A stretch of 61,399 nt of DNA, counting the filler, from Globobulimina sp. (Eukaryota): NCBI GenBank assembly GCA_003354225.1. It is 23 parts of 23 records of this genome, joined end to end, with 100 filler letters (N's around TTAATTAATTAA, not from the genome) between each part and the next. Parts side by side here need not be neighbours in the genome. Positions count along the whole stretch, not along the records: positions 32,102 to 34,674 come from PIVH01005911.1; 22 more parts are not named here. The stretch is one strand, 5' to 3'. Position numbers and translations under genes: made by a program. Below, piece by piece: positions 1-37,447 of the stretch. The notes beneath the pieces are model-generated. The model did no database searches. It was not told the DNA's origin and was given only the letters and a program-made list of their open reading frames with translations. Position 1 is the stretch's first letter; every line of letters begins with the position of its first letter.

Positions 1-935
1 CTCAATCCGACGAAATTTCCCACCTTGAATCCAAATACGAGAGCACCCACAGTTACTAATTACACATATCCACCAACAATCATTCCGAGCACGAACCCAA
101 CAAATAATCCTTCAACAACGCCGACCAAATCACCCACTGAGAACCCTTCGACAGCACCGACAAAATCACCCACTACGGATCCCACGAAAAATCCATCCAC
201 ATCTCCTACGAAAGCACCAAGCAAACCTATATTTTTTAGAGACTTGAATATATAAATGAGACAATTGACTGTAATTTTACTTTATTTACAACTGAAATTT
301 ACTTTTATACCGAAAACTATGCAAATAATAATATAATATTCGAAATTGATAACTTGAATGTTACAAATAATATGAATGAGTCTTTGATTCGGATTAATTA
401 TCAAATATCGAGCAATGCTTCGGATGAGATGTTGGATGCCGTTGAAAATATGATTAACGCAGCGAGATTTAAGCAACTTTTAATGGATGATTTAGAAGAA
501 AGTTCTGGTGATTGTGTAGATTTTAAATATATTGGATTTGAGACATCGAGATCAGAAATATCAACTTCGCAGTTACTATCAACTGACAATGAGGGCGGAG
601 AAGACCAAGATGTGTGGATCAAATTGCTTGATTGGCAAAATTATAATACCACAGAGTTGTTGGTTGTAATTGGCATTGGCGTCGTTGTGGTGATACTCAT
701 TTGTACGATTCTTTATTGTCTGATAAGATGTTGTTGCAATGACAGAGAGAATGCTTCGCAATTTACGCATAGTAATAATGCACAGTCTGTTGTTGAGTTT
801 GGTGGCTTTCATTCGAAACCAAGACAAAAGAAAGCTGTGTTTAATTATTCAAACCAATTTACTGATGCAAATAATCAAAATATGCAAAATCGAAGAGTTT
901 CCGATATCGATGGTAATCGTTGGATTGAAATATAA
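1..935 (+). CDS. Mucin-like (PT-repeat) single-pass membrane protein, 5' partial, apparent frameshift near 240-252
   Basis: Frame 1 encodes TxxPT/PS repeats to TAA at 253. Frame 3 is open 240-935 with a hydrophobic TM helix (LLVVIGIGVVVVILICTILYCLI) followed by RCCC and a cytosolic tail. Confidence 0.7.
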
Positions 936-1121
936 TTTGTTTTTTGTTTTTGTGTTTGTTTTCTTTGATTCTTAGTGTTTTCAAAGGATTATATTTGTTA
1001 CCAACCCCAAGTTATACTTTGTTAATTTGTGCAAACCCGACACAAAGCTATAGCAAACCGTTAGAATATAAAATCAAACATCAGGAATATGAGTACGTAT
1101 TACAAATTGAATGAAGACATT

Positions 1122-2576
1122 TTAGGGTTGTTTTGTTGTCAGAAAAGAATCCTTTATATTTGTACTCAATGATATGCCTTTTTGCAAATGTTGCACTATT
1201 TGTTTCCATGTCAATTGTGCTTGATATAATTTACAAACTCTATCAAATAACCAAATGGCTTGGTGGTCGGTTTCAATCTGCAACTCAATTTTTAACATAT
1301 TCCAGCATGTAATAATTGTATCCTCTCTTTGCTCAGATTGCAAAATTGCATTTTGCACAAAGTATTTTATTCTCGATAAAAACACAAAAAATCGGTAGAT
1401 TTGTTGCAATGATAACGTTTTTATTTTGTTTCTAATGATTTGAAATAATTTATTTATGGATTTATCATTGATTCCCAATGAATGCTTTAATAATATAAAT
1501 TGTGACAGCTTTAATGTGTGCGATCCATTCACGGCTTGTGAGTTTACACAAAAATCATATGATTTTAATATCATTAAACCGTGCGGTATGCTCATTTTTG
1601 ATTCATTTGAATTTGGTTTGAACGCCCAAAATAAATTCAAATTGAAACATAAATCGGCAATATTTTTTGAATATGTATACAAATATTTAAGTTCCGATTG
1701 GAATTCTTGTTTTTCTTTGTTTGAATTCCATACTGTTTCACAGAAATACTCGTTTTTAAAAATCATAAATGTTTTTGGCAATGGTTTTGCAAAGAAATCA
1801 ATTGTTTCTTTATTCAATTTGCTATGTTTCAATCTTTTTTTATCTTTCATAAATTTATGATATTTTATCATCATTTCAGTAATTTTCTCATTACGTTTTA
1901 AAACATTGCCAAATTGTACTGAGAATGAAAATATTTGTTGCAAAGTTATGGTGTCACAACAAAATGATAACATTGCATCAAATATATTGTCTCGTCTTTC
2001 CTGCTCCATTCTAATTATTGATCGATTTATTTTCCTTTCAAATATTTCATTTTCGTGCATTACCATTACGCTCATATTAAATTCATAATTTTTGAATTCT
2101 TTCTGACATAATATGCAGTCACATTGCTTATTACATAAATGACAGTCTTTATTAATTTCTTTGATCAAATCACTCCATTTCTTCCTATCCAAATGCCTTA
2201 ATTTTAACTTGGCATTTTTCACTGCATTTACATTTACATTAAAATTATTTTCTTGATACAATCTGCCGGATTTCTGTCTCGATTCTTGTGTATCTTCAAT
2301 TATTGCACTCAACAAATGATTGATAATACGCGTAATTCCACCATATCCAAACATCATTTTATTTGTATCACATATCAATTTATTCAGACACTCTTTGATT
2401 TGACCCAATGATATCACATTCTTTTGGGTATCCAATGCCGCACCAAATAGCTCTGAAGCTTGCATGCTTTTTTTTGTTGACAACAATGTTCTTTGTTTAT
2501 TTTTCATTTCATCATTTTCATTGCAATTTAGTTCAAATTCTGGATCCACAAATTTAACAAACACATCATGCGAAAT
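1122..2576 (-). CDS. Hypothetical protein, 5' partial
   Basis: 480+ aa stop-free frame running to the contig edge, with a small Cys cluster CHLCNKQCDCILC. No family recognised. Confidence 0.7.
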   Translation of the reverse strand: MSHDVFVKFVDPEFELNCNENDEMKNKQRTLLSTKKSMQASELFGAALDTQKNVISLGQIKECLNKLICDTNKMMFGYGGITRIINHLLSAIIEDTQESRQKSGRLYQENNFNVNVNAVKNAKLKLRHLDRKKWSDLIKEINKDCHLCNKQCDCILCQKEFKNYEFNMSVMVMHENEIFERKINRSIIRMEQERRDNIFDAMLSFCCDTITLQQIFSFSVQFGNVLKRNEKITEMMIKYHKFMKDKKRLKHSKLNKETIDFFAKPLPKTFMIFKNEYFCETVWNSNKEKQEFQSELKYLYTYSKNIADLCFNLNLFWAFKPNSNESKMSIPHGLMILKSYDFCVNSQAVNGSHTLKLSQFILLKHSLGINDKSINKLFQIIRNKIKTLSLQQIYRFFVFLSRIKYFVQNAILQSEQREDTIITCWNMLKIELQIETDHQAIWLFDRVCKLYQAQLTWKQIVQHLQKGISLSTNIKDSFLTTKQP

Positions 2577-2676
2577 NNNNNNNNNNNNNNNNNNNNNNNN
2601 NNNNNNNNNNNNNNNNNNNNTTAATTAATTAANNNNNNNNNNNNNNNNNNNNNNNNNNNNNNNNNNNNNNNNNNNN
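2577..2676. other. Artificial contig linker (first of 22)
   Basis: N44-TTAATTAATTAA-N44 with stops in all six frames. It recurs at 5253, 7929, 10605, 13281, 15956, 18631, 21306, 23981, 26655, 29329, 32002, 34675, 37348, 40021, 42694, 45367, 48040, 50712, 53384, 56056 and 58728. Intervening contigs shrink monotonically from 2576 to 2572 bp. Confidence 0.99.
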
Positions 2677-4821
2677 TTATTATACATTTCTTGATCTTTT
2701 TTAGATGGCTTATATTTGCCGCCATTACATATTGCATTATAAATGTCATCAACTTTTATTAAATCCTTTTTAGTTTTCACTGCATTTGCAATAGTATTAA
2801 TATGTAATCCTTTACGTAACAAAGCCTTAACTAATTGTATTTGCTCTGCATCCTTTTGATCATCATCAACATTACCAATCTGATCATCATTTTTCTTCTC
2901 ATCACAGCCAAAAATCAGTCCTCCATTGCCTTCACAAATAATATTTTCATACTTTATTTTGGTCCCATTAGAAATTTCAATATGTCCTTTCATTCCAAAT
3001 AACTGCCGACCTGAAACAAACAATTTAATTCATACATTTCCAAATAAATATATACCACAAACCATAAGGAGTATTATAACCAATTACAACTCCTACACTA
3101 TATTCACATTTTGAATTTGCTGAACGAAGCTGCAAACTTTTAATATGTTTCAATTTATTGTCAGGATCAGCAATTTTGATAACTGCAATATTAGCATATT
3201 GGTATACTTTCCATGACACAGCATACCAATGATAAATAGTATGACATGCTGTCAATCCATCAGCTGTATTTTCTAATATTTCAAATAATATGTGATGCAC
3301 TTTCATTTTCCCATCATTTTGAACAATGGCGGCAGCACTGCCCAATAAATATGCACATTTTTCTGATTTTTTTATAATGAATGCAGTGGATCGGAATTTG
3401 ATTGAACGACCATTGGAATTTCCAAAATCTGTCCATAACATTCCGACATTATAAACCTGATTATTATTACCGTCAAACCCAAAGTCCTTTGGCTGTGCGC
3501 GTCTATATTTGAATCTTGTTTGCAATGAAACACAAAAACTTTCAATTTCATTTGTTAGCAAAGTCGCCTTAATCAAGTCATCCACATTTTTGATGGTGCT
3601 ATGTTGTGCAGTCAACGTTGTCGCACATAAAGTGCCTGCATTGTATTTATATTTTTTAGATCCACCGGTATGAACAGCAAATATCAGAGTATATTTATCA
3701 TAAATTGAAAATATGGCAGCTCCGGAAGTGCCACCAGATGCATCAATTTCTGTTTGTTTCAACACATATTCTCCATTGTCATACTCATTTAACTCACATT
3801 CAAATATATCATTAATTGACTCAGCACCCCACATAGCTTCGCGTTGCTTATTTTCGCTTTGTTTGATTGGTTTTTTGAGCACAATCAAAGGATATCCATA
3901 GATATAATAAGCATGTTTCCCCCTAATATTATGAAATAATTTGCCATCAACCAATAGAATATTTTCGCAGACATGTTTGTAATAATTATTGGTATCTCTA
4001 AATCTAAGAATTGCTATGTCATAACCACTTTTTACCAGTGGTAATTCAGCATATTTATCATCGTCAATATATACTATATCTCTGTTAAATTTATATTCCT
4101 GTTCAATGTCACCATTCTCCAATTTTCTGCGCTGAAAATATACCTTGCCTGCTTTTAAAATATGTGCTGTAGAATTTAATGATTTGCATTTAATATCTGA
4201 ACATTTTCGTGTTTCGTTTTTCTTTTTGCAGTCATTACACTCAAAATATTCGGTAAACCTCACATTGTGCGCACACGTAATAACATAGCAATAACTGCCT
4301 ATAACTTTATATACAGTGCCTGTTCCAACTGCAGTCAACGCAAAACCATCACTTTTAATATATGTTGCTCTTATTTTGCCAATGCAAGCAATGATGTTTT
4401 CCTCTTTAATGCAACAACCAAATGCTTTCTCTCTCAAATCATTCTCATTCACTAAAACCTCTTGTTCGCCATCATCCAAATCATCAATGTCATGTTCTAT
4501 GTTATCATGATCACTATTTTTGAGGGTTTGACATATTCCACACTGATTCTCTGTGTTTTTGTTGATAAATCTGCATTTTGTGCAGCTCCATTCCGATATG
4601 AACTTTACAAACAATCTTGTTTTCTCTCCAAAAAGCTCAATATCCTCATCATCGATGACACATTCATCATCATCAATGATATTGAAATTTGTTAAATTTA
4701 TATTGCGGAATTTCTCAATTATTTTTTGCTTCAACTGCAGTAAATTGGTTTCATTTTTATTGATTGTTATCTTTCGTTTTACTGCATTTATCTCAATGAT
4801 TAAGCAAATACGGGTTGACAT
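2677..4821 (-). CDS. Multidomain trypsin-like serine protease (PB1/ubiquitin-like N-terminus, RanBP2 Zn finger, active protease domain, degenerate second protease domain), 3' partial
   Basis: WSCTKCRFINKNTENQCGICQ (RanBP2-type finger). Catalytic triad in GTGT..ITCAHNV / YDIAIL / GGTSGAAI..AVHTGG. A 52-nt GT-AG intron at 3011-3062 joins ...NTPYG|RQLFGMKG in frame. Confidence 0.8.
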
Positions 4822-5353
4822 ATGTAAGCTTACTGCATTTATCTCAATGATATATGTAAGCTTACTGAAAATTTCTGCTGTTCAAAAACTTTTTCAGTAT
4901 TTTCGCAATAGTTGTCGAACAGAGGCTCATTGAATTGATTAAAAAGCAAAACTTCCTGAGATTTATGTGTGTCATCAGAAGAATAACGGATAAACATAGA
5001 GACGTCCAATGTGTGGAATATTATCAATTTCTTGTCCGGGGATATTTCTTGGTTGCGGTGCAAACGTGGGATAACAAACTGTTTTAGAAATAAAATAAAT
5101 AAAATACAGAATTATTACCGTTCACGGTTATATATAGCAAAAAAAATAACAATACAAACTCAGACATCAAACTATTGCATATCTCGAACATACGCCAATA
5201 TCGTGGCACTTTCCGAATGGCGCAATGCTTGCTGTTTTGCACCTGTATAAACNNNNNNNNNNNNNNNNNNNNNNNNNNNNNNNNNNNNNNNNNNNNTTAA
5301 TTAATTAANNNNNNNNNNNNNNNNNNNNNNNNNNNNNNNNNNNNNNNNNNNNC

Positions 5354-7928
5354 ATTGACAATTGTTATCCGTTTGGTTCATTTATCCCATTTCCAATCAA
5401 CAACTTCCAATTAATGATCTTAGCGGGAGCCAAAGGCTCAACTGTCAACATGGCGCAAATCGTAGCTTTGTTAGGTTTGTTCTGCTCAAAATATTTTATA
5501 TATCAACAGCAATATTTTATATTTTCTTTTTATGGAACAGGTCAACAGGAATTGGAAGGACATCGGGTTCCGCGCATGATATCTGGCAAAACGTTGCCAT
5601 GTTTTGCAGCGTATGACCCGTGCGGTCGTTCAGGCGGCTTCGTCACCCAACGATTTCTAACTGGCCTACGACCGCAAGAATATTACTTCCATTCCATGGC
5701 AGGCCGCGAAGGTTTGGTGGACACTGCGTGTAAAACCTCGCGCAGTGGGTATTTGCAACGCTGTTTAATTAAAGGATTAGAAACCTTACACGTCGCATAT
5801 GATAATACAGTGCGGGATTGTAACCAGAATATTATACAATTCCTATACGGCGAAGACTCGTTAGATACCTCCAAAGCAAGTTATTTGGACGTGAATGATT
5901 GTAGAAAATACTCGTTTTTCGCCAAGAATAAAAACATCATTGAGAAGAAAGTCAAAAAAGGAATGTTTGACGAACGCGAATTAAAATTAATATTCGAGGA
6001 TCGAGATAAGTTTTTAAATAAAGCATTTTTCGAAAATATGCCTGAATCGAAACTACACAAAATTTTGTCAGCTGATATTAAACGAGCGGACTACACGGCG
6101 ATGGATTTCCGAAATGCGCGGTTGTATATGTTCCAATGGCATAAATATAAGAAAAAACACAAAATTGATAATTGCGATCCATGTTTGAATATTTATAATC
6201 CAGCTTTGCATTTTGGCTCTGTGTCAGAATCGTATTTCAATCGAATTAAACAGTTTATAAAAACATTCCATTCCAACACTAAGATAACATTAAGCAAAAA
6301 TAAACGATTCCAGAAGGAATTTGGTATAAAAACCCTCGATTTCGAGGACTTAATGAAAATAAATTATGCCAAAGCTTTGGTAGAGTCCGGAGAGATGGTC
6401 GGAATATTAGCAGCACAGAGCATTGGTGAGCCGTCCACGCAAATGACACTAAATACTTTCCATTTGGCCGGCTTTGGGGACAGAAATGTCACCTTAGGCA
6501 TACCGCGCATGCGCGAGATATTGATGACGGGGGGAAACAATATTAAAACCCCAGATATGTCCTTTTGGATCTCGGCCGATATACAGCAACCAATGGACGC
6601 TGCGATAAAGTTGAAAAAGGCATTGCAGCCGTTGTCATTAGCTACGTTATTGACTTCGCGCAGTATCCAAGGCCCAGACGTCGTACGTAAAGGCGCCAAA
6701 ACTTACAAACGGGTCTATACCATCGAATTAATAATCGCAGTGCCAAAAGCAATGAAAGATGCGAGTATCAAAGGAGTATTACGCTGTTTGCAGAAGCAAT
6801 TCTTGCCGACTTTATTGCGGTTAATTGGCACAAATGCATCCAAATCAGCAGCTACCTCTGCGTCCAAAATCGATGAATCGCAGAATATCAAAGACGATGA
6901 ATATAATATACAACAAATGCAGGAGGAGAAGGACGAGAAAAGTAAGAATGTTGATGGCAATGTGGAGGAGGAGGAGAGTGACGATGTGGACGCTGACAGT
7001 AATCATTCCGACAGTGACTTAGATGCACACAGTGAGGAAGAGAAAGAATCAGAATTAGAGGACGAAAGTGTGTTATTTGGCGGCACTGATACTGACACAG
7101 TGACTGATAAAGACGATGTTGGATCGAATAAAATGCCCAATTTAGTGACCACCACAGATGATGATTTTAGTGATTATGTAGCTGATAAAAAGAAAAAGAA
7201 ACATAAAAAAAAGATTTTTAGAGATAATGATAAATTGCAACAAGAGCTAGCATTGAAATATAATACATTTCGTAGTGTGTCGATTGTGATCGATGAGCCG
7301 CGAATATTATGTTCATTACAAATTGAATTGCCGCTAAACCACGAACCATTATTATTGCAATCGTTAATTGACAAAGTTTGCAGAAATCATGCGTTTGTAC
7401 GTAAAATCAACAATATTGATTCTGTACATATTCAATATGATAAAAATGGTGGTTATGGAGGCTCGAATTGGAAAATAATAATCTCCGGTTTTAACACTGC
7501 GGTGTTTAAATTGGTGGAGAAATATGTCGATCTACGCTCATTTGAATCGAATTCCATTTATCAAATATATCTATTGTATGGGATCGAAGCAGCGAGAAAT
7601 TCCATCATCAAGGAATTGCTGAGCGTGTTAGGTGCGTATGGTTTGAATGTCTCATTCCGGCATTTATCGTTAATTGCGGACGCAATGACGTATTTTGGCG
7701 AAATCAGGGCAATGACAAGGAAGTCAATGTCAAAGTCGACCTCTCCGTTCTTGCGTGTTACATATGAAACGGCACAGAACTTTTTGAATGATTCATGTTT
7801 AAATAAAGACATTGATAATATTTCATCGCCGTCCTCTGCGATTGTGTTGGGGCAAGTTGGTAAATTTGGTACGGGGCTGTTTGATATTAAACAAGATATT
7901 AAGCAATTAATTAAAATACAAAAAGAAC
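5354..7928 (+). CDS. RPA1: DNA-directed RNA polymerase I largest subunit, C-terminal half (partial)
   Basis: [98 protein letters not shown], acidic expander insert, RHLSLIAD and no CTD heptads. A 66-nt intron lies at 5475-5540. Confidence 0.95.
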
Positions 7929-21405: not shown

Positions 21406-21930
21406 CTAAAATGCATCGGAATAATCATCAACACTAAAATACATCGGGACAGACATCAACACTAAAATGCATCGGGATAAAATGCATCGGGACAAACATC
21501 AACACTAAAATACATCGGGATAGGAATCGACACTAAAATACATCAAGGTAGGCATCAGGATAATCATCAACACTAAAATGCATCGGGACAGACATCAACA
21601 CTAAAATACATCGGGATAGGAATCGACACTAAAATACATCAGGGTAGGCATCGGGATAATCATCAACACTAAAATGCATCGGGATATCATCGGGATAGGC
21701 ATCAACACTAAAATACATCAGGGTAGGCATCGGGATAGACATCGGGATAGACATCGACACTAAAATACATCGGGATATGCGTCGGGCTAATCATCAACAC
21801 TAAAATGCTTCGGGACACATCGGAATAGGCATCGGGCTAATCATCAACACTAAAATGCTTCGGGACAGACATCAACACTAAAATTCATCGGGATATGCAT
21901 CGGGCTAATCATCAACACTAAAAAGCATCA
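21406..21930 (+). repeat. Modular satellite (CATCAACACTAAAATR and CATCGGGAYANN modules)
   Basis: About 525 bp of interleaved 16-nt and about 12-nt modules that both begin CATC, truncated by the contig start. Confidence 0.95.
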
Positions 21931-30201: not shown

Positions 30202-31056
30202 ATGGATGATACAGAATGGAGACAAGAGGTGTTTCACATTAATCAAAAGAAAGGATTTGAAAGCTTATTTCACATTTTCAGCGAATCACTCAGTGACCCA
30301 ATATTCATATCGGTGTGCATAATTGGTTGTATTTTCTTCATTTTTGTGCGAGTAATTAGCGAGAAAATCTTTGCTGCATTACCAAAGCATCAACAAAAGA
30401 GCAGCAAAATGACAGCAAAGGGGTTTGGAGGGTGGGTTTCGTCATTAGTGCACGCATTAATTGTTGCGCCTGCTGCCCTCTACATTTTGTGGTATTATCA
30501 ATTGAATGAAGAGATAATGACAGCCAACCACAGTGGCAATGACAATTTAATCATTTTCCGAATTATTACAATGTTGTCCACTTCTTATTTTGCCATTGAT
30601 ACATTGTATTTGGTGTTATTGGTCCCTGAAGCGACCGCAGCTTACAAAGCAACCATGTTTGTCCATCACTCAATCTCTGGCATTTTGACTTTAATGACAA
30701 CAGTGATGAACCCATTGGTATTGCATTTGGTTGCGCTGAGCGAAGCGGTTGAATTTAGTACGATTCTTTTAAATGTAAGAGTCATTGGAAAACTGTTTGA
30801 AATGCCAAAGGTGTATTACATTGGGGGCTTAGGAGGACTCATTACGTATCCCACCAGATTCGTATTGTTGCCCTGGTGTTTAGTATATTCCTATTATCAA
30901 AGAAGTAATCTGACAAAAGTAACCTGCGATGAATTTATGATATTTCAGACTGGTGGAACCACTTTTGGCGTATTAATGAGTGTGTATTATTTCTTTGGAG
31001 TTATTTTGCCAAGTGGAACCAAATTCTTTAAACTTCGTCTGAAAAAACGCGATTAG
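30202..31056 (+). CDS. TLC (TRAM/LAG1/CLN8) domain membrane protein
   Basis: SLVHA, YFAID, MFVHH, EFSTILLNVR and TR motifs set in TM helices. Confidence 0.88.
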   Translation: MDDTEWRQEVFHINQKKGFESLFHIFSESLSDPIFISVCIIGCIFFIFVRVISEKIFAALPKHQQKSSKMTAKGFGGWVSSLVHALIVAPAALYILWYYQLNEEIMTANHSGNDNLIIFRIITMLSTSYFAIDTLYLVLLVPEATAAYKATMFVHHSISGILTLMTTVMNPLVLHLVALSEAVEFSTILLNVRVIGKLFEMPKVYYIGGLGGLITYPTRFVLLPWCLVYSYYQRSNLTKVTCDEFMIFQTGGTTFGVLMSVYYFFGVILPSGTKFFKLRLKKRD

Positions 31057-32101
31057 ATGCTGAATAAACTCGAAAATGTGTCTTGTAGTGTGTTTAATGA
31101 TTTTAATATGACTTTTTTTCGAAACGGTTTGCCTAAAAAACGAAAAAGTTTGTTGAAGCTCAAAAACATTCACTTCAACAATCACAAACCACACAATCAA
31201 AATAAGCAGAAATCCTGCACTACGTTTGTATTTATGACATAATAATACTGTGGAAGCTCAAATCACATAGCAAACCACAACAGCAACCATTCAATGCAAT
31301 AGCGGACATATTAGCTGATATCGGTTGTCAACACCCTCACAATTCCATGCAACTTAATACGATATGCGAAGTATAAATCTTTCCACTTTCCAAGGGGTAT
31401 TATACCCAACCAACTTAACACCCTCACTCAGACCGGGATGAATGTTTCCCCCACTACTACTCAATCAAGACCAGAATGTTGAGGAAGTTTAATAATTTCA
31501 CCATTCTACGGTATTATGATTATCACATTCAAATATTTTGATTTGATACGATTACATTCGCAAAAATGAATGAAAAAGCAATCAAAAAAAGTGATGAATT
31601 TTGGCGTTTTTTTACTTTTACAACTTTTGATACAAAAAAAATCCGTAATACAACATTTGAACCAATTATATATCTGAAATGCAATATGAACGAAAGTATA
31701 ATGATTATTCTAGACCTGGCGCACTAGGATGAACTAGTTAGATCACTCCATCTGTCCTATAAAATTAACATTGAATAAAATGTATATAACTTATCGCCAA
31801 ACGGGTGAGGTATCCAATGGGATATATCGTTTAGTCAAAAAAACATACAGACATTGCAAACTTAGTCATGAGGTGAGAACCGTTCTTATATCGCACAACA
31901 CACACAAATTGAAAATAAAATGAAAAATACACAACTATACATTACCCGCAGTGGTTCCTTGCGGCGTCTCTGTCGTAATGTCATTATTTGGTTGATCTTG
32001 ANNNNNNNNNNNNNNNNNNNNNNNNNNNNNNNNNNNNNNNNNNNNTTAATTAATTAANNNNNNNNNNNNNNNNNNNNNNNNNNNNNNNNNNNNNNNNNNN
32101 N

Positions 32102-33427
32102 CACCGTGCACTAAAATATATTTCAAACCCTAAATACTGGAGAAATATGGCCAAAGGGAAGGAATTAATAAAATTATTAAAAGAAAAAGAAAATAACTGT
32201 TTAAGACTAAGATTGGTCATTGGCCATTTTAACACCGTTGTAAAACCACTAAATATTATTCATCGCAAATTTTTTAATCGTTTCAATATGAAACTACGAG
32301 CTATGTTTCCCTATCATTTACTTATTGAATCTGTAATAATGCTTATATTTGAAATTATTGTTTTTAATGAAAAAATAAAGGAAAATGGATTACGTGTCGA
32401 AGATATGTGGATAATTACAATCGATATTCGTGAATTTTATCCAAATACATGCAATGAATACGTTTTTGAGTCCATGGCTTTACTCAAAAACCTCTTTAGT
32501 ATTGACCCAATATTAATATTTTTAATTAAAAGGACACTGAAAACGTGTTTTGATAATGCATTTTTTGAGATTAATAATACGATTTACAAACAAATCAATG
32601 GCCAAATGATTGGCGGTGATGGTTCTGGTGATATTTGTGACTGTGCCTTATTGATACGCGAATACCACGCATTTTTTAATAAAATTGATGCTAATTTTGC
32701 CAAATACTTCCGATACAAAGACGATATTCTCGCCTTTATGTTTTCTATAAACAAACCATCGGAGAAACACATTCTTGGTATACTTCATCAAATTTATGGC
32801 ACAAATTTTAAGTTTAAAATAAATATAACACGAAATCCCATACAATTCCTTGATATCACACTCAATTTAGACATATTCAATAATGCAATACGTACCACGC
32901 CATATATTAAACCCAGCAATGCCTGTAATTATACTAAGAAACGATCAAACGCACAAAGTACCGTATTAGGTACAATTATTTGTGGTTTATCATTCCGTTA
33001 CATTGTGACTAGTGACACTGAGTGCAAATTTATCCAAAGACGCACTAAATTATACAGAGACTTATTACGTAACGGTTGGACTGCGAAGGATATTCGCGTT
33101 TTGCCACCAAAATATTTCCCTAAATATAATAACAGACGGCAGCTTATAAACGAATACTTTATTAAATTCTGGAATAAATGCTACAAATTTGTAACATGTA
33201 ATTCTAATGCTCCATTATGTATATTTGAGCAATTTGAACAGGATGAAAATAAAGAAACCGTTATATTTAAAAACGGTGTATTTAATAAATGCTATGATAA
33301 CTTACGGGATATTCGCCAAGCCATTGACAAAGGGATTAATTTATTACCTAATAATATGCCAGAAATTGAAGTTATTATTTCTTCATTGGCTTCCCCGGCA
33401 TTGCGATCTCTATTTTATCGCACTTAA
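32102..33427 (+). mobile_element. Penelope-like element (PLE) reverse transcriptase, 5' partial, no C-terminal GIY-YIG endonuclease
   Basis: RT2 LRLVIG, RT3 TIDIREFYPN, RT4 YKQINGQMIGG.GS, RT5 RYKDD, RT7 FLDI. PLE thumb YIKPSN..NY...SN..R..S...F...L..NGW. Stop follows ASPALRSLF. Confidence 0.85.
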
Positions 33428-34353
33428 ATACTATATTTATACATATTAATATTAACAAAATCAATCCATTTTATATTCACTTAATTATATTTATCTTATT
33501 CAAACTACCCACACGCGCATCGTTATAAATTTGTGGGTGTTTTTTATGATTTATATCTCAATATAATCTGAATTTGCATTGATTTATATATTAATTAATC
33601 GATTTCGCACTGATTTTTGTATTGATTTATTGGATTTGCTTTGATCAGTCTTTGATTTGTAAATTTTCAATTTATTTTACATTGATTTAATGTGTGAATT
33701 CGACTGGATTGTAATGACATGATTGTATACAATTCAATATGTTCCAAATTATTATGTATAGATATTTTAATGTTGTTGTATTGATTTATGATTATAAAAA
33801 TTGATTAATATCAGTTTCCCATCGCATTAAAATTGGATCCATTTTTACATTCAGACCATAAGCGTTTCCATATATTTTCATTTAATTATTCAATATCTGG
33901 ATGACTATACGTTATGGAATGAGATTTATGGAATCCATATGCGACTATTATGCTCAATACGACTTTGTTATACTTTTTGTTGTTTGACCCATGGTCGGGC
34001 CTCAATGCCCAACCTCACTCAAAATGTTTTTACAAGAAACAAATAAAAAACCACCTGTGAGTCTTGAATAAGACGTCGGTGCCAAGTGACATAAATTCTT
34101 GTATTAAATTTGTATTTGAATTATTTATTTGTTAATTTATTTATTGGCAAATTCGTCAATTTATCAATCAAACACACAATTGGCCAAAGCAGAAACACTT
34201 TAATTTTATTATATTAAGCGATCCCCGGCGGTGAAGGATATTAAGTCTTGTTACGTTTGCGTCATAGCAGTGGATTATACCACCACTTCGTTCCGCCAGC
34301 CCACAAACTCCCCACCCCACCACCCCCAAATATTAGAAATATGATCATATTTT

Positions 34354-34674
34354 CCTAAGGGAAAGTGTACTTTTTGTACGCAACTGTATGCCTGAGTTAG
34401 CCTAAGGGAAAGTATACCTTTTTTACACGCAACTGTATGCCCGAGCTAGGCTAAGGGAAAGTGTACTTTTTACACGCAACTGTATGCCCGAGCTAGGCTA
34501 AGGGAAAGTGTACTTTTTGTACGCAACTTTACACCTGAGTTAGCCTAAAGGGAAAGTAGACCTTTTTTACCTGCAACTTTACGCCTGAGTTACCCTAAAG
34601 GGAAAGTATACCTTTTTTACATGCAACTTTACGCCCAGTATATTTCCGAAAAAAACATGGGCGTAAAGATGCAT
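34354..34674. repeat. Tandem array of about 47-50-bp units (6 copies) that inverts at the contig end
   Basis: Units CCTAAGGGAAAGTGTACTTTTT..CGCAACT.TA.GCC.GAG.TAG start at 34354, 34401, 34450, 34497, 34544 and 34594. 34621-34637 is the reverse complement (1 mismatch) of 34658-34674. Confidence 0.95.
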
Positions 34675-34774
34675 NNNNNNNNNNNNNNNNNNNNNNNNNN
34701 NNNNNNNNNNNNNNNNNNTTAATTAATTAANNNNNNNNNNNNNNNNNNNNNNNNNNNNNNNNNNNNNNNNNNNN

Positions 34775-35401: not shown

Positions 35402-36622
35402 TCAATGGCCAATAATATCATGCTTTTGTGGCGTGTTGTTGTTATTTTGCCAAATATATTTTACAATTTCGTGGCTTGCCTCGCGAGGCGAAACTATATT
35501 GTCCATCACCTTCTTTTCAATTGGAATCAAATCTTTCTTCTTTGCATTGACATTTTCTTTGATATGCCTCCAAACATATTTCCACGTCGCAAATTTGCTT
35601 TGCTCCCTTCTGCATCGATCAAATTCCCCATTTGCTTCCATTTCCTTCCGAAATATTTCAATTTCCCTCCAAACATTCAGAACCGTATTCTCCTCCTCTG
35701 CATTGCTGCCATTTTTAAAACGCACAGACTGCGGCAAGCTTGAACACAAAACAATTTTCGGCTGCCATCCTATATTGGCACGTCGGTGCGTTTGCAGTAA
35801 GGCCAAAGCTCTCTGATAGTCATTTTTGATATGCTTCGCTTTGTGCGCCATCTCCGACGACGGATCCGCTTTATTCACAATAACCAAATCAGCCATTTCC
35901 AGAATGCCTCTTTTCAATCCTTGCAGCTCATCGCCAGACGTCGGCGTTATAATTAATACGAACATATCCACGCAGTGTGCGACCTCAATCTCGGCCTGGC
36001 CGACGCCCACTGTCTCTACGAATATGATATCAAAGCCGGCGGCTTCGCATAATGTGCACACTTCGAATGTTGTGTCGGTAACGCCACCCAACGACAGTCT
36101 GTTTGGTGACGGTCGGAGATATGCGGATTCCTTTTTAAATAAATCTAACATTCTCGCCTGATCGCCCAATATGGAGCCACCCGACAAAAATGAGGATGGG
36201 TCCACCGGCAATACACATATTTTATTATTAGACGCCGCATCGCATAGTTTGCAGCCTAGTTCGTTGACAAAAGTAGATTTCCCGGCGCCTGGCGGCCCAG
36301 TTATGCCGATACGAAATGATCTTTTCTCGCTTCTTCTGCTTTGCTGCGATGAATAAATGTGATTTAATAACAGTTGGGCTTGTTTGCAATGCCTCGCATT
36401 GGTGGACTCGACCAAGGTGATAGCACGCGATAAATCGCGCCGATTGCCTGACAACACACCTTCTGCAATGCGCATGACATCATCATCGGCAACCTTTGTC
36501 CTTAAAAAAGATCTGTCAATATCATGTATGTGCGCATGCCGGAATTGTGGAATACCATTAGGGTGGATCTGCTTTAATGTTGCTAGTAAAGAGCAATGTT
36601 TGAACACAGTTTTGCAGTGCAT
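35402..36622 (-). CDS. MMAA: Methylmalonyl-CoA mutase chaperone GTPase (MMAA/MeaB), mitochondrial
   Basis: LSRAITLVES, RIGITGPPGAGKST, VDPSS..SGGSILGD..RM, RPSP, ETVGVGQ.E, GDELQG.KRGILE, VNKAD. Likely start is MHCKTVFK at 36622. Confidence 0.95.
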   Translation of the reverse strand: MHCKTVFKHCSLLATLKQIHPNGIPQFRHAHIHDIDRSFLRTKVADDDVMRIAEGVLSGNRRDLSRAITLVESTNARHCKQAQLLLNHIYSSQQSRRSEKRSFRIGITGPPGAGKSTFVNELGCKLCDAASNNKICVLPVDPSSFLSGGSILGDQARMLDLFKKESAYLRPSPNRLSLGGVTDTTFEVCTLCEAAGFDIIFVETVGVGQAEIEVAHCVDMFVLIITPTSGDELQGLKRGILEMADLVIVNKADPSSEMAHKAKHIKNDYQRALALLQTHRRANIGWQPKIVLCSSLPQSVRFKNGSNAEEENTVLNVWREIEIFRKEMEANGEFDRCRREQSKFATWKYVWRHIKENVNAKKKDLIPIEKKVMDNIVSPREASHEIVKYIWQNNNNTPQKHDIIGH

Positions 36623-37447
36623 TTTGCGAATTTGGATGCAATTTTGTTTTTTTTGTAAGATCTTTCCTTCCGACAGAGGATTAAAGACGCCGAGCAACAA
36701 ATAATTAAATCCAGCAACGTTGTTTCGTCCAATCATACACAAACAACAAATTCGAACAACTTTCATGGGATAACACTGCGTCAAATGGCGTACATCATTC
36801 ACAAGTCACAACAATTACAAATTGCTTGTTATTTATTCGTAAACCAACCCAACATAAAAAAAGAGCATTCAAACAAAAAAATCTCAACATCTCAATAAAA
36901 AACTTATAAATCAATCGCATATTAATGTAGCACATATAAAAAAGCAATTATTCAAATTGAGCAGATAAAATATTACACATTTTACCAAACAAATATATTC
37001 TGAGACATGAATAAAAAACATAACTATAGCTAATCGTATCAAGTATCAACAAACGACGTATTATCTATCTGCTGAAACAAACGACATATTTTACGACGTA
37101 TTATGTACTTATTCCATTTGTGGAAATGTAATCGCATCGCTGTGGTTAAGTGGCGTTTCTCATCGCGTGCGATTAAACGGTGTATTCTGGATTTGCAGCT
37201 GTTAACACCGAGGGTTACAACATTAACCATAAGTTGCTTGTGAATATATACTTGCTGGAATTGCAACACATAAACCATTTTCCGATTGGATTTGATCGAA
37301 ACAAGAAAGCCAGAAACATAAATGTATGCACTTCTCATCAGCCAATANNNNNNNNNNNNNNNNNNNNNNNNNNNNNNNNNNNNNNNNNNNNTTAATTAAT
37401 TAANNNNNNNNNNNNNNNNNNNNNNNNNNNNNNNNNNNNNNNNNNNN

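Follow-up and report, generated by a model that had tools for sequence, protein, structure and literature searches.

A probable endonuclease-less Penelope-like reverse transcriptase gene in a Globobulimina sp. assembly

The window analysed here, a stretch of 61,399 nucleotides (nt; positions 1-61399) from the Globobulimina sp. assembly GCA_003354225.1, contains at 32102..33427 an open reading frame (ORF) that an earlier note had assigned to a Penelope-like element (PLE) reverse transcriptase (RT) ending without a GIY-YIG endonuclease. Among retroelements, PLEs have the RTs most closely related to telomerase, and the endonuclease-minus forms are thought to be ancestor-like. The locus raises the question of whether the endonuclease is truly absent or lies outside the visible part, and of what kind of element such a gene would belong to. 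We conclude that the ORF is probably the RT gene (ORF2) of one endonuclease-less PLE copy on a small unplaced contig. The encoded protein is an intact PLE-type RT with a telomerase-like predicted fold, and it belongs to a divergent branch of an already known type of element rather than to a novel one.

The reverse transcriptase frame and its predicted fold

The ORF lies on the plus strand, comprises 441 sense codons followed by a TAA stop codon (33425-33427) and is open at its 5' end, where it is cut by the start of the contig. Given the base composition of the contig, 441 codons would be free of stops with a probability of ~2e-15, and the longest open run in the other five frames of the contig is 84 codons. 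The ORF corresponds to residues 184-630 of the 632-residue relative P0006; the first ~183 codons, and with them ~183 N-terminal residues, are missing because the assembly breaks at the contig edge at 32102. This position, taken earlier as the start of the feature, is the first base of the open frame but not a biological start, being the first base after a synthetic linker. The TAA stop directly follows ...SSLASPALRSLFYRT / ...ASPALRSLFYRT, which agrees with the earlier assignment of a stop right after the linker motif.

The conserved RT motifs are all on the plus strand and in the expected order. RT motif 3(A), ITIDIREFYPN (32414..32446), includes a catalytic Asp at 32423-32425; RT motif 4(B), QINGQMIGGDGSGDICD (32591..32641), is a family-specific G-G-D-(V/I)-C-D version; and RT motif 5(C), RYKDD (32711..32725), provides the catalytic Asp-Asp pair. 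An FLD motif (32846..32854) precedes a PLE-type thumb, IKPSN...RSNAQS...R (~32900..33004), with canonical PLE spacing. The C-terminal region (33005..33424) extends ~140 residues past the thumb Arg and ends with ...IISSLASPALRSLFYRT.

In a 101-row alignment with PLE-type matches, the window protein keeps all nearly invariant residues (13/13). Its spacings (A to B, 56; B to C, 43; motif E to the thumb Lys, 19; Lys to Arg, 29) are equal to or within one residue of the medians in the 86 other PLE-type rows (56, 42, 19 and 29, respectively). The open frame, the RT motifs and the PLE thumb of the original description all hold. The insert of about 30 residues that had been proposed does exist as an expansion, but it amounts to only ~15 residues and lies between RT1 and motif A, a stretch of 81-87 residues in the family formed by the window protein and its close relatives; in 80 other rows this stretch ranges from 62 to 90 residues, with a median of 66. 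The expansion is the sole length difference from canonical PLEs. Similarly, the motifs had been called atypical: motif B is indeed family-specific, but an Arg or Lys before the Asp pair of motif C, Y(K/R)DD, also occurs in 17 of the 86 other rows and is not particular to this family.

Pfam RVT_1 gives no match to the window protein even at E <= 10, and a word-based protein search with it found none at E <= 0.01 among 3722 candidates. Since RVT_1 is blind to the protein, its identity as an RT rests on homologues, motif geometry and fold. A practical consequence is that such RTs escape a Pfam RVT_1 scan. An AlphaFold2 model computed from the 101-row alignment has a predicted local distance difference test (pLDDT) score of 88.2 and a predicted template-modelling (pTM) score of 0.87. 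The nine best Foldseek matches in the PDB are all telomerase RTs (E values of 7e-9 to 7e-7), with retron, group II intron and viral RNA polymerase structures ranked after them. VIA-align gives a Z score of 18.0 for the yeast telomerase RT (TERT; 310 residues, 4.1 Å), 17.6 for Candida TERT and 16.5 for human TERT; a group II intron RT follows at 15.9, with a small margin of about 2. At the sequence level, the top PDB match of the 101-row PLE-wide profile is Tribolium TERT (E = 1.3e-10).

Relatives, endonuclease and phylogeny

A phmmer search against 1.84 billion representatives returned 253 matches at E <= 1e-3, including 23 at <= 1e-10 and eight at <= 1e-30. The distant matches are PLEs: most of the 104 scanned with Pfam contain RVT_1, and 13 carry GIY-YIG, always at the C-terminus. 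No Pfam domain is detected in the close matches (P0002-P0013, P0152 and P0154), which lie on ENA, Logan or JGI contigs 1-4 kb long; all relatives of the window RT are from metagenome-type sources. Within its own subfamily, the window protein is 41-45% identical to P0002, P0004 and P0005, and the identity to the full-length relatives is ~28%. Scans of viral contigs found no relatives. The nearest ESM Atlas clusters (score 0.96) are annotated HTH_animal, RVT_1 and DUF8422 and derive largely from Rotifera and Cnidaria, which we take as a lead only. The family is linked to endonuclease-bearing PLEs at the profile level: an eight-member family profile aligns with P0085 with an hhalign probability of 98.4% (E = 6e-15, 460 columns), and the alignment extends from the N-terminal motifs to the thumb.

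A GIY-YIG hidden Markov model (HMM) was built from the 13 Pfam-positive PLE endonucleases and run on 156 stored proteins, among which it found 24 C-terminal endonucleases at E < 1e-9 and one more at 3.5e-6. The same HMM has no match at E <= 10 in any of the six frames of the RT contig, which bears out the statement that no GIY-YIG lies downstream. By eye, in comparison with rows of the Hydra clade of PLEs, the C-terminal region of the window protein ends where endonuclease-bearing PLEs run on into the linker and GIY-YIG. In a 15-row alignment, every member that reaches a C-terminus stops within a few residues of the end of the window ORF, and most family C-termini read ...IIAxRGxPKxxxxFxKNGL. 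The tail past the thumb Arg is 138-159 residues long in the 12/12 family members reaching the C-terminus, compared with 188-315 residues in 20 endonuclease-bearing rows. Since all 12 stop alike, the lack of an endonuclease at the C-terminus characterises the family.

Among the 86 rows outside the family, 53 that are not near neighbours also have no endonuclease, and 45 of these end at or before 170 residues past the thumb Arg; 13 near-neighbour rows end 61-143 residues past it. Endonuclease-less PLE-type RTs thus seem to be common in metagenome-derived protein sets, in which truncated gene calls are indistinguishable from true ends.

The N-terminal part, which the window ORF does not include, can be examined in its relatives. 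The longest family proteins have 632 and 655 residues in a search covering proteins of every length. A DK(N/G)xG motif is found upstream of the K(Y/L/F)HKG RT1 motif in P0006, P0009 and P0007, and paired N-terminal motifs are seen as LGCKF and DKNMG in the related locus L001 (see below) and as GGKF and DKNLG in P0009, with DKGLG in P0007; GxKF/Y and DKG are described as N-terminal marks of PLEs (Craig et al., 2021; PMC8557442). Neither Pfam nor the GIY-YIG HMM detects an N-terminal GIY-YIG in P0006, P0009 or L001 ORF2. Before DK(N/G) there is one Cys in P0006, none in P0009 and one in L001 ORF2, so that no CxC motif is formed. Motifs A and B are 56 residues apart in the window protein and 56-63 apart in the family, the median of the 86 other rows being 56, which leaves no IFD.

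L001 is a single locus from JGI metagenome contigs and occupies the whole of a 3894-nt contig. It begins with the 3' end of an RT ORF (3-353), followed by a 667-nt spacer (354-1020) between the end of this ORF and ORF1; ORF1 (1021-1998) encodes 325 residues with an Arg/Gly-rich tail and ends in TGA (1996-1998). The RT ORF (ORF2) follows in the frame of ORF1 from 1999 to the contig end, where it is open, and begins ...LANLGCKFKL. The first and last 308 nt of L001 are 97.4% identical, which defines a 3586-nt unit present as two distinct head-to-tail copies. This unit can accommodate ORF1 and ORF2 but not a nuclease as well, and the GIY-YIG HMM likewise finds none in the six frames of L001. ORF1 has no Pfam match; a word-based search recovered it at 97% identity on another contig, from ENA, with one low-complexity match besides. 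ORF1 has been seen at L001 and in this copy only and may not be general to the family. No non-coding similarity was found between the 3' flank in the window and the L001 spacer. The junction of ORF1 and ORF2 consists of a lone in-frame TGA, and the first ATG of the RT ORF, at 2146, lies past the first conserved motif. Neither ORF contains an in-frame TGA besides 1996-1998. This arrangement is suggestive of read-through of the stop codon or of a host in which TGA is a sense codon. A model of the N-terminal 306 residues of L001 ORF2 (pLDDT of 84.1) has a best VIA Z score of 7.7, to helical hairpins only, and a wide VIA search with it listed neither a nuclease nor the TERT RNA-binding domain; matches as weak as these do not demonstrate a new fold.

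These relatives bear on the idea that a nuclease is encoded outside the visible part, as an N-terminal GIY-YIG, in a separate upstream ORF of the Chlamys or Naiad type, or elsewhere in a Terminon-like composite. The contig cuts the ORF ~183 residues short, and the closest relatives (P0002, P0004, P0005 and P0008) are all fragments, so that no example of an N-terminus is available for this sub-branch. The N-terminal endonucleases of PLEs were overlooked for years, and Athena-type RTs are sometimes associated with GIY-YIG endonucleases in Terminons (Craig et al., 2021; PMC8557442). Set against this, P0006, P0009 and L001 ORF2, which are full length or nearly so, have no GIY-YIG, CxC or IFD; the 3586-nt unit of L001 fits ORF1 and ORF2 only; and P0003, the deepest branch beside the window protein, starts a few residues from the start of the window ORF. 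We consider an unseen nuclease improbable, and the permuted, Chlamys-like arrangement offered as an alternative in the earlier note finds no support in the full-length relatives.

The phylogenetic position of the family was examined with two trees. The first was computed from 116 stored proteins of at least 300 residues, without P0125 and three near-duplicates; the 105 rows in which window positions 30-340 were at least 75% occupied were kept, giving 285 columns for a quick IQ-TREE run. In this tree the family (nine rows and the long-branch P0031) forms a clade with an SH-aLRT support of 98, and all 23 endonuclease-bearing rows lie across a starred branch from it. The second tree contains 64 representatives, including P0139 and P0134, over window positions 98-345 (242 columns), and a careful search reached a log-likelihood (lnL) of -30834.9. 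The family clade has a support of 99/97 and is present in 100% of 200 bootstrap trees, with a bootstrap that is not fully settled (correlation of 0.961). The clade of the window RT and its metagenome relatives is solid and, together with the 12/12 C-termini that end alike, supports the divergent endonuclease-minus PLE lineage that had been put forward.

Whether the family nests within an endonuclease-bearing clade is less clear-cut. In the second tree, a Hydra-like set (P0139, P0134, P0027 and the endonuclease-bearing P0085 and P0090; support of 100/97) lies inside a 96/96 clade of endonuclease-bearing rows, apart from the family; P0139 and P0134 are short matches and plainly Hydra-like. The best tree thus keeps the family outside, but a tree in which the family and the Hydra-like set are forced together is 23.2 lnL units worse and is not rejected (p-AU of 0.118, approximately unbiased test). 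The same forced union is 13.4 lnL units better than a poorer quick tree. The constrained group was defined after the motifs had been seen, not before seeing any tree. The family may be tied to the endonuclease-bearing Hydra clade.

Contig, flanking DNA and copy number

The window is a pseudomolecule in which 23 unplaced contigs, size-sorted from 2576 to 2572 nt, are connected by 100-nt linkers. The linker word TTAATTAATTAA occurs 22 times, compared with 0.09 occurrences expected, at a spacing that decreases from 2676 to 2672 nt. The RT contig (32102-34674; 2573 nt; G+C of 0.317) is bounded at its 5' end by a synthetic linker at 32002..32101 (44 N, TTAATTAATTAA and 44 N) and at its 3' end by another at 34675..34774. 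Since the contigs are joined by synthetic linkers, arguments from synteny or neighbours across any linker are void, and the gene neighbourhoods of the window are assembly artefacts. The RT gene is alone on its contig; the genes that flank the contig in the window, encoding a membrane protein (30202-31056) and MeaB (35402-36802), are not true neighbours. The remaining contigs have long unbroken ORFs for Rpb1 domains, a calpain, a kinase, UbiA, ALO and TPR proteins, a gene content that fits an AT-rich, intron-poor eukaryote as the source. Neither the missing 5' part of the RT ORF nor a second RT copy was found among the other contigs, and the corresponding Logan contig likewise ends at 32102, with no reported loose end there. 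The RT contig itself shows no tandem or partial-tandem copies (pseudo-LTRs) of the kind known from PLEs.

The ORF is followed on the plus strand by an AT-rich non-coding 3' flank (33428..34353), within which the 3' end of the element was not located; 33428-33563 and 33822-34337 are covered by several diverged pieces of Logan contigs. A C-rich run, CCCCACCCCACCACCCCCAAA (34310..34330, plus strand), lies just before a 47-nt satellite (34354..34636; 5.8 copies with ~85% matches), which can also be read with a 96-nt period and is absent from the other 22 window contigs. The end of the contig (34621-34674; 54 nt) matches its own reverse complement (83.6% over 55 alignment columns), perhaps because the contig ends in a hairpin-like structure or because the satellite was misassembled there. 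A complex tandem array (21406-21923; periods of 28, 40 and 96; unit ...CATCGGGATA...CATCAACACTAAAATA...) opens another contig and is unrelated to the 47-nt satellite.

Depth was measured as the summed word depth of Logan contigs in three runs (X1-X3) of one sample; no RNA run was listed as containing the contig. In X1, the summed depth is 16-19 in two 86-nt bins of the RT body, 21-59 across the final 200 nt of the ORF and the 135 nt after it, and 17-83 in parts of 33822-34337; for the 47-nt satellite it is 334-5619, the top being roughly a thousandfold the RT body. A diverged piece in X1 is 91% identical over 33327-33427. Extra diverged copies of the 3' part of the ORF exist, as expected of 5'-truncated retroelement copies.

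Several results weigh against the interpretation of the gene as ORF2 of an endonuclease-less PLE copy. Run X1 contains 78% of the words of the contig and the two other runs next to none, the near-absence of RT words in X2 and X3 not being evidence of absence. Most of the RT body in X1 is covered by single contig pieces at a depth of 3.7-6.5; this low depth does not support a high RT copy number, and the source may be a minor or foreign one. With the 5' part missing, the subfamily of the window protein may have an upstream ORF or domain of its own. A profile of the family alone found no significant solved RT in the PDB (best match, Drt3a RT at E = 0.055), and the family is connected to RTs by way of intermediate PLE sequences and by the predicted fold. 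Rfam detects no hammerhead at E <= 1 in the window contig, including its 1.25-kb 3' flank, or in L001, and no CUGANGA...GAAA core was found on either strand of the contig or L001; such a motif could lie past 34674. There is no telomere-type repeat array in the contig or in the whole window, the telomere repeat of the host not being known, and no recognisable reverse-complement telomeric tract in the 3' flank of the contig or in L001.

Telomere-like candidates comprise the C-rich run at 34310-34330, which is not a tandem telomere-type repeat, and a pair formed by the 8-nt ACCCACAC and GTGGGTG at ~33510-33540. Predicted RNA folds of 33428-33640 (z of -1.15) and 34230-34400 (z of -0.43) are no better than those of shuffled sequences. 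An action at chromosome ends would be suggested by analogy, from the absence of a nuclease, the head-to-tail arrays in relatives and the adjoining satellite.

The depth and context of the contig bear on two further explanations. The gene could be a domesticated or single-copy host RT gene and not an active mobile element, in line with the intact 441-codon ORF, the low single-piece depth over most of the RT body and the lack of a second copy among the 23 window contigs. This appears unlikely, slightly more so than an unseen nuclease: in L001 two 97.4% identical units stand in tandem, with an ORF1, near-identical variants occur in the clusters of relatives (for example, four members in the P0010 cluster), X1 contains diverged pieces of the 3' end of the ORF and the copy lies beside a satellite, not among genes. 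Alternatively, the contig could be foreign (from prey, a symbiont or a contaminant) or a dead relic that merely looks intact, as might be argued from a 2.6-kb unplaced contig that is found in one of the three runs and whose relatives are all from metagenome-type sources. We give this about the same small weight as a host gene. The G+C content of 0.317 is within the range of the other window contigs (0.288-0.443), the gene is physically joined to a satellite with a depth of up to ~5600, as expected of an abundant genome's own satellite, and the catalytic and nearly invariant residues are all kept. One copy of an endonuclease-less PLE remains our preferred interpretation.

Comparison with known systems

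Naiad and Chlamys elements differ from the family, whose full-length relatives have no N-terminal GIY-YIG, no CxC upstream of GxKF/Y and no IFD; with the IFD, the distance from RT3(A) to RT4(B) is ~20 residues or more longer in Naiad and Chlamys than in other PLEs (Craig et al., 2021; PMC8557442).

The known endonuclease-minus PLEs are Athena, from bdelloid rotifers, and Coprina, from fungi, protists and plants, which join G-rich overhangs via short reverse-complement telomeric repeats beside a hammerhead ribozyme; canonical hammerheads are reported in all PLEs except Naiad and most Chlamys (Craig et al., 2021; PMC8557442). The family shares with Athena and Coprina a PLE-type RT that has the N-terminal motifs and the thumb but lacks an endonuclease. 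In both cases an upstream ORF1 can occur; it is named in the legend to Fig. 1 of Craig et al. (2021; PMC8557442) and is present in the relative L001. A dependence on a pre-existing 3'-OH is presumed for both. Differences are that neither a reverse-complement telomeric tract nor a hammerhead was found on the window contig or L001 and that, by eye, motif B reads GGAMGS...TLTxAN in Athena and GLAMGIACSPDLAN in CoprinaP1, both of the ordinary AMG...(S/T)...AN form (Craig et al., 2021, supplementary Fig. S1). Athena and Coprina were compared through published figure rows only, and as the named references are not in our trees the family is not assigned to either clade.

The element would be transcribed, and ORF2 would be made either as an ORF1-ORF2 read-through product or alone. 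Having no nuclease, the RT would have to prime cDNA synthesis on an existing 3'-OH, as described for Athena and Coprina, at a chromosome end, at a break or at the end of a previous copy; such priming would also yield head-to-tail arrays.

The Hydra clade, which carries a C-terminal endonuclease and is found in aquatic invertebrates (Craig et al., 2021; PMC8557442, section 11), has the motifs FDIxxFYPSIT (A), MGSYDGAEVCE (B) and LYRDDG (C) and a post-thumb IIWFNPPFS... (Craig et al., 2021, supplementary Figs S1 and S7). By eye, these resemble D(I/M)xxMYPxT in motif A of the family, the equally unusual IGSYDGGDVCD in its motif B (IGGDGSGDICD in the window protein) and eIIxVKPxFN... after its thumb; motif C is also alike, with YRDD in Hydra and RYRDD in the family, and neither group has an IFD or CxC. 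On the other side, the family stops where the CxCX5C linker and GIY-YIG (no CCHH) of Hydra start, its relatives have DKN or DKG compared with DKT in Hydra, L001 has two ORFs in a 3586-nt unit compared with a single ORF in an element of under 3 kb, and no hammerhead was found on the window contig or L001. Another, separate cluster without an endonuclease (P0033, P0094, P0043 and P0129) also recalls Hydra: its motif B is of the GSYDS(G/A)E type, and DDG follows its motif C. Several environmental lineages that lack an endonuclease may share the Hydra-type motif B.

A bolder proposal, which we put forward tentatively and consider possible but doubtful, is that the window RT and its metagenome relatives would form a previously undescribed deep endonuclease-less PLE clade of microbial eukaryotes, with a Hydra-type RT4(B), an end at the start of the Hydra endonuclease linker, an ORF1 joined via an in-frame stop and no hammerhead. 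Such a clade would either retain the ancestral, nuclease-free condition of the Hydra lineage or have lost the nuclease cleanly, and it would multiply by extension of free DNA ends. The literature listings and abstracts that we consulted describe no endonuclease-minus, Hydra-like PLE clade in protists. If robust and widespread, the clade would provide a data point on how often PLEs gain or lose their nuclease and would bear on the age of nuclease-free end extension, especially if its motifs tie it to the Hydra clade of animals.

With respect to telomerase, sequence identity to TERT is 9-14%, the IFD of TERT has no counterpart in the family (the A-to-B spacing of 56 being that of canonical PLEs), the N-terminal domain of L001 ORF2 has no match to the TERT RNA-binding domain and, judging by L001, the family gene resides in a retroelement-like unit. 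Over residues 1-350, the predicted model has its best structural match in TERT, which is also the top PDB sequence match of the PLE-wide profile.

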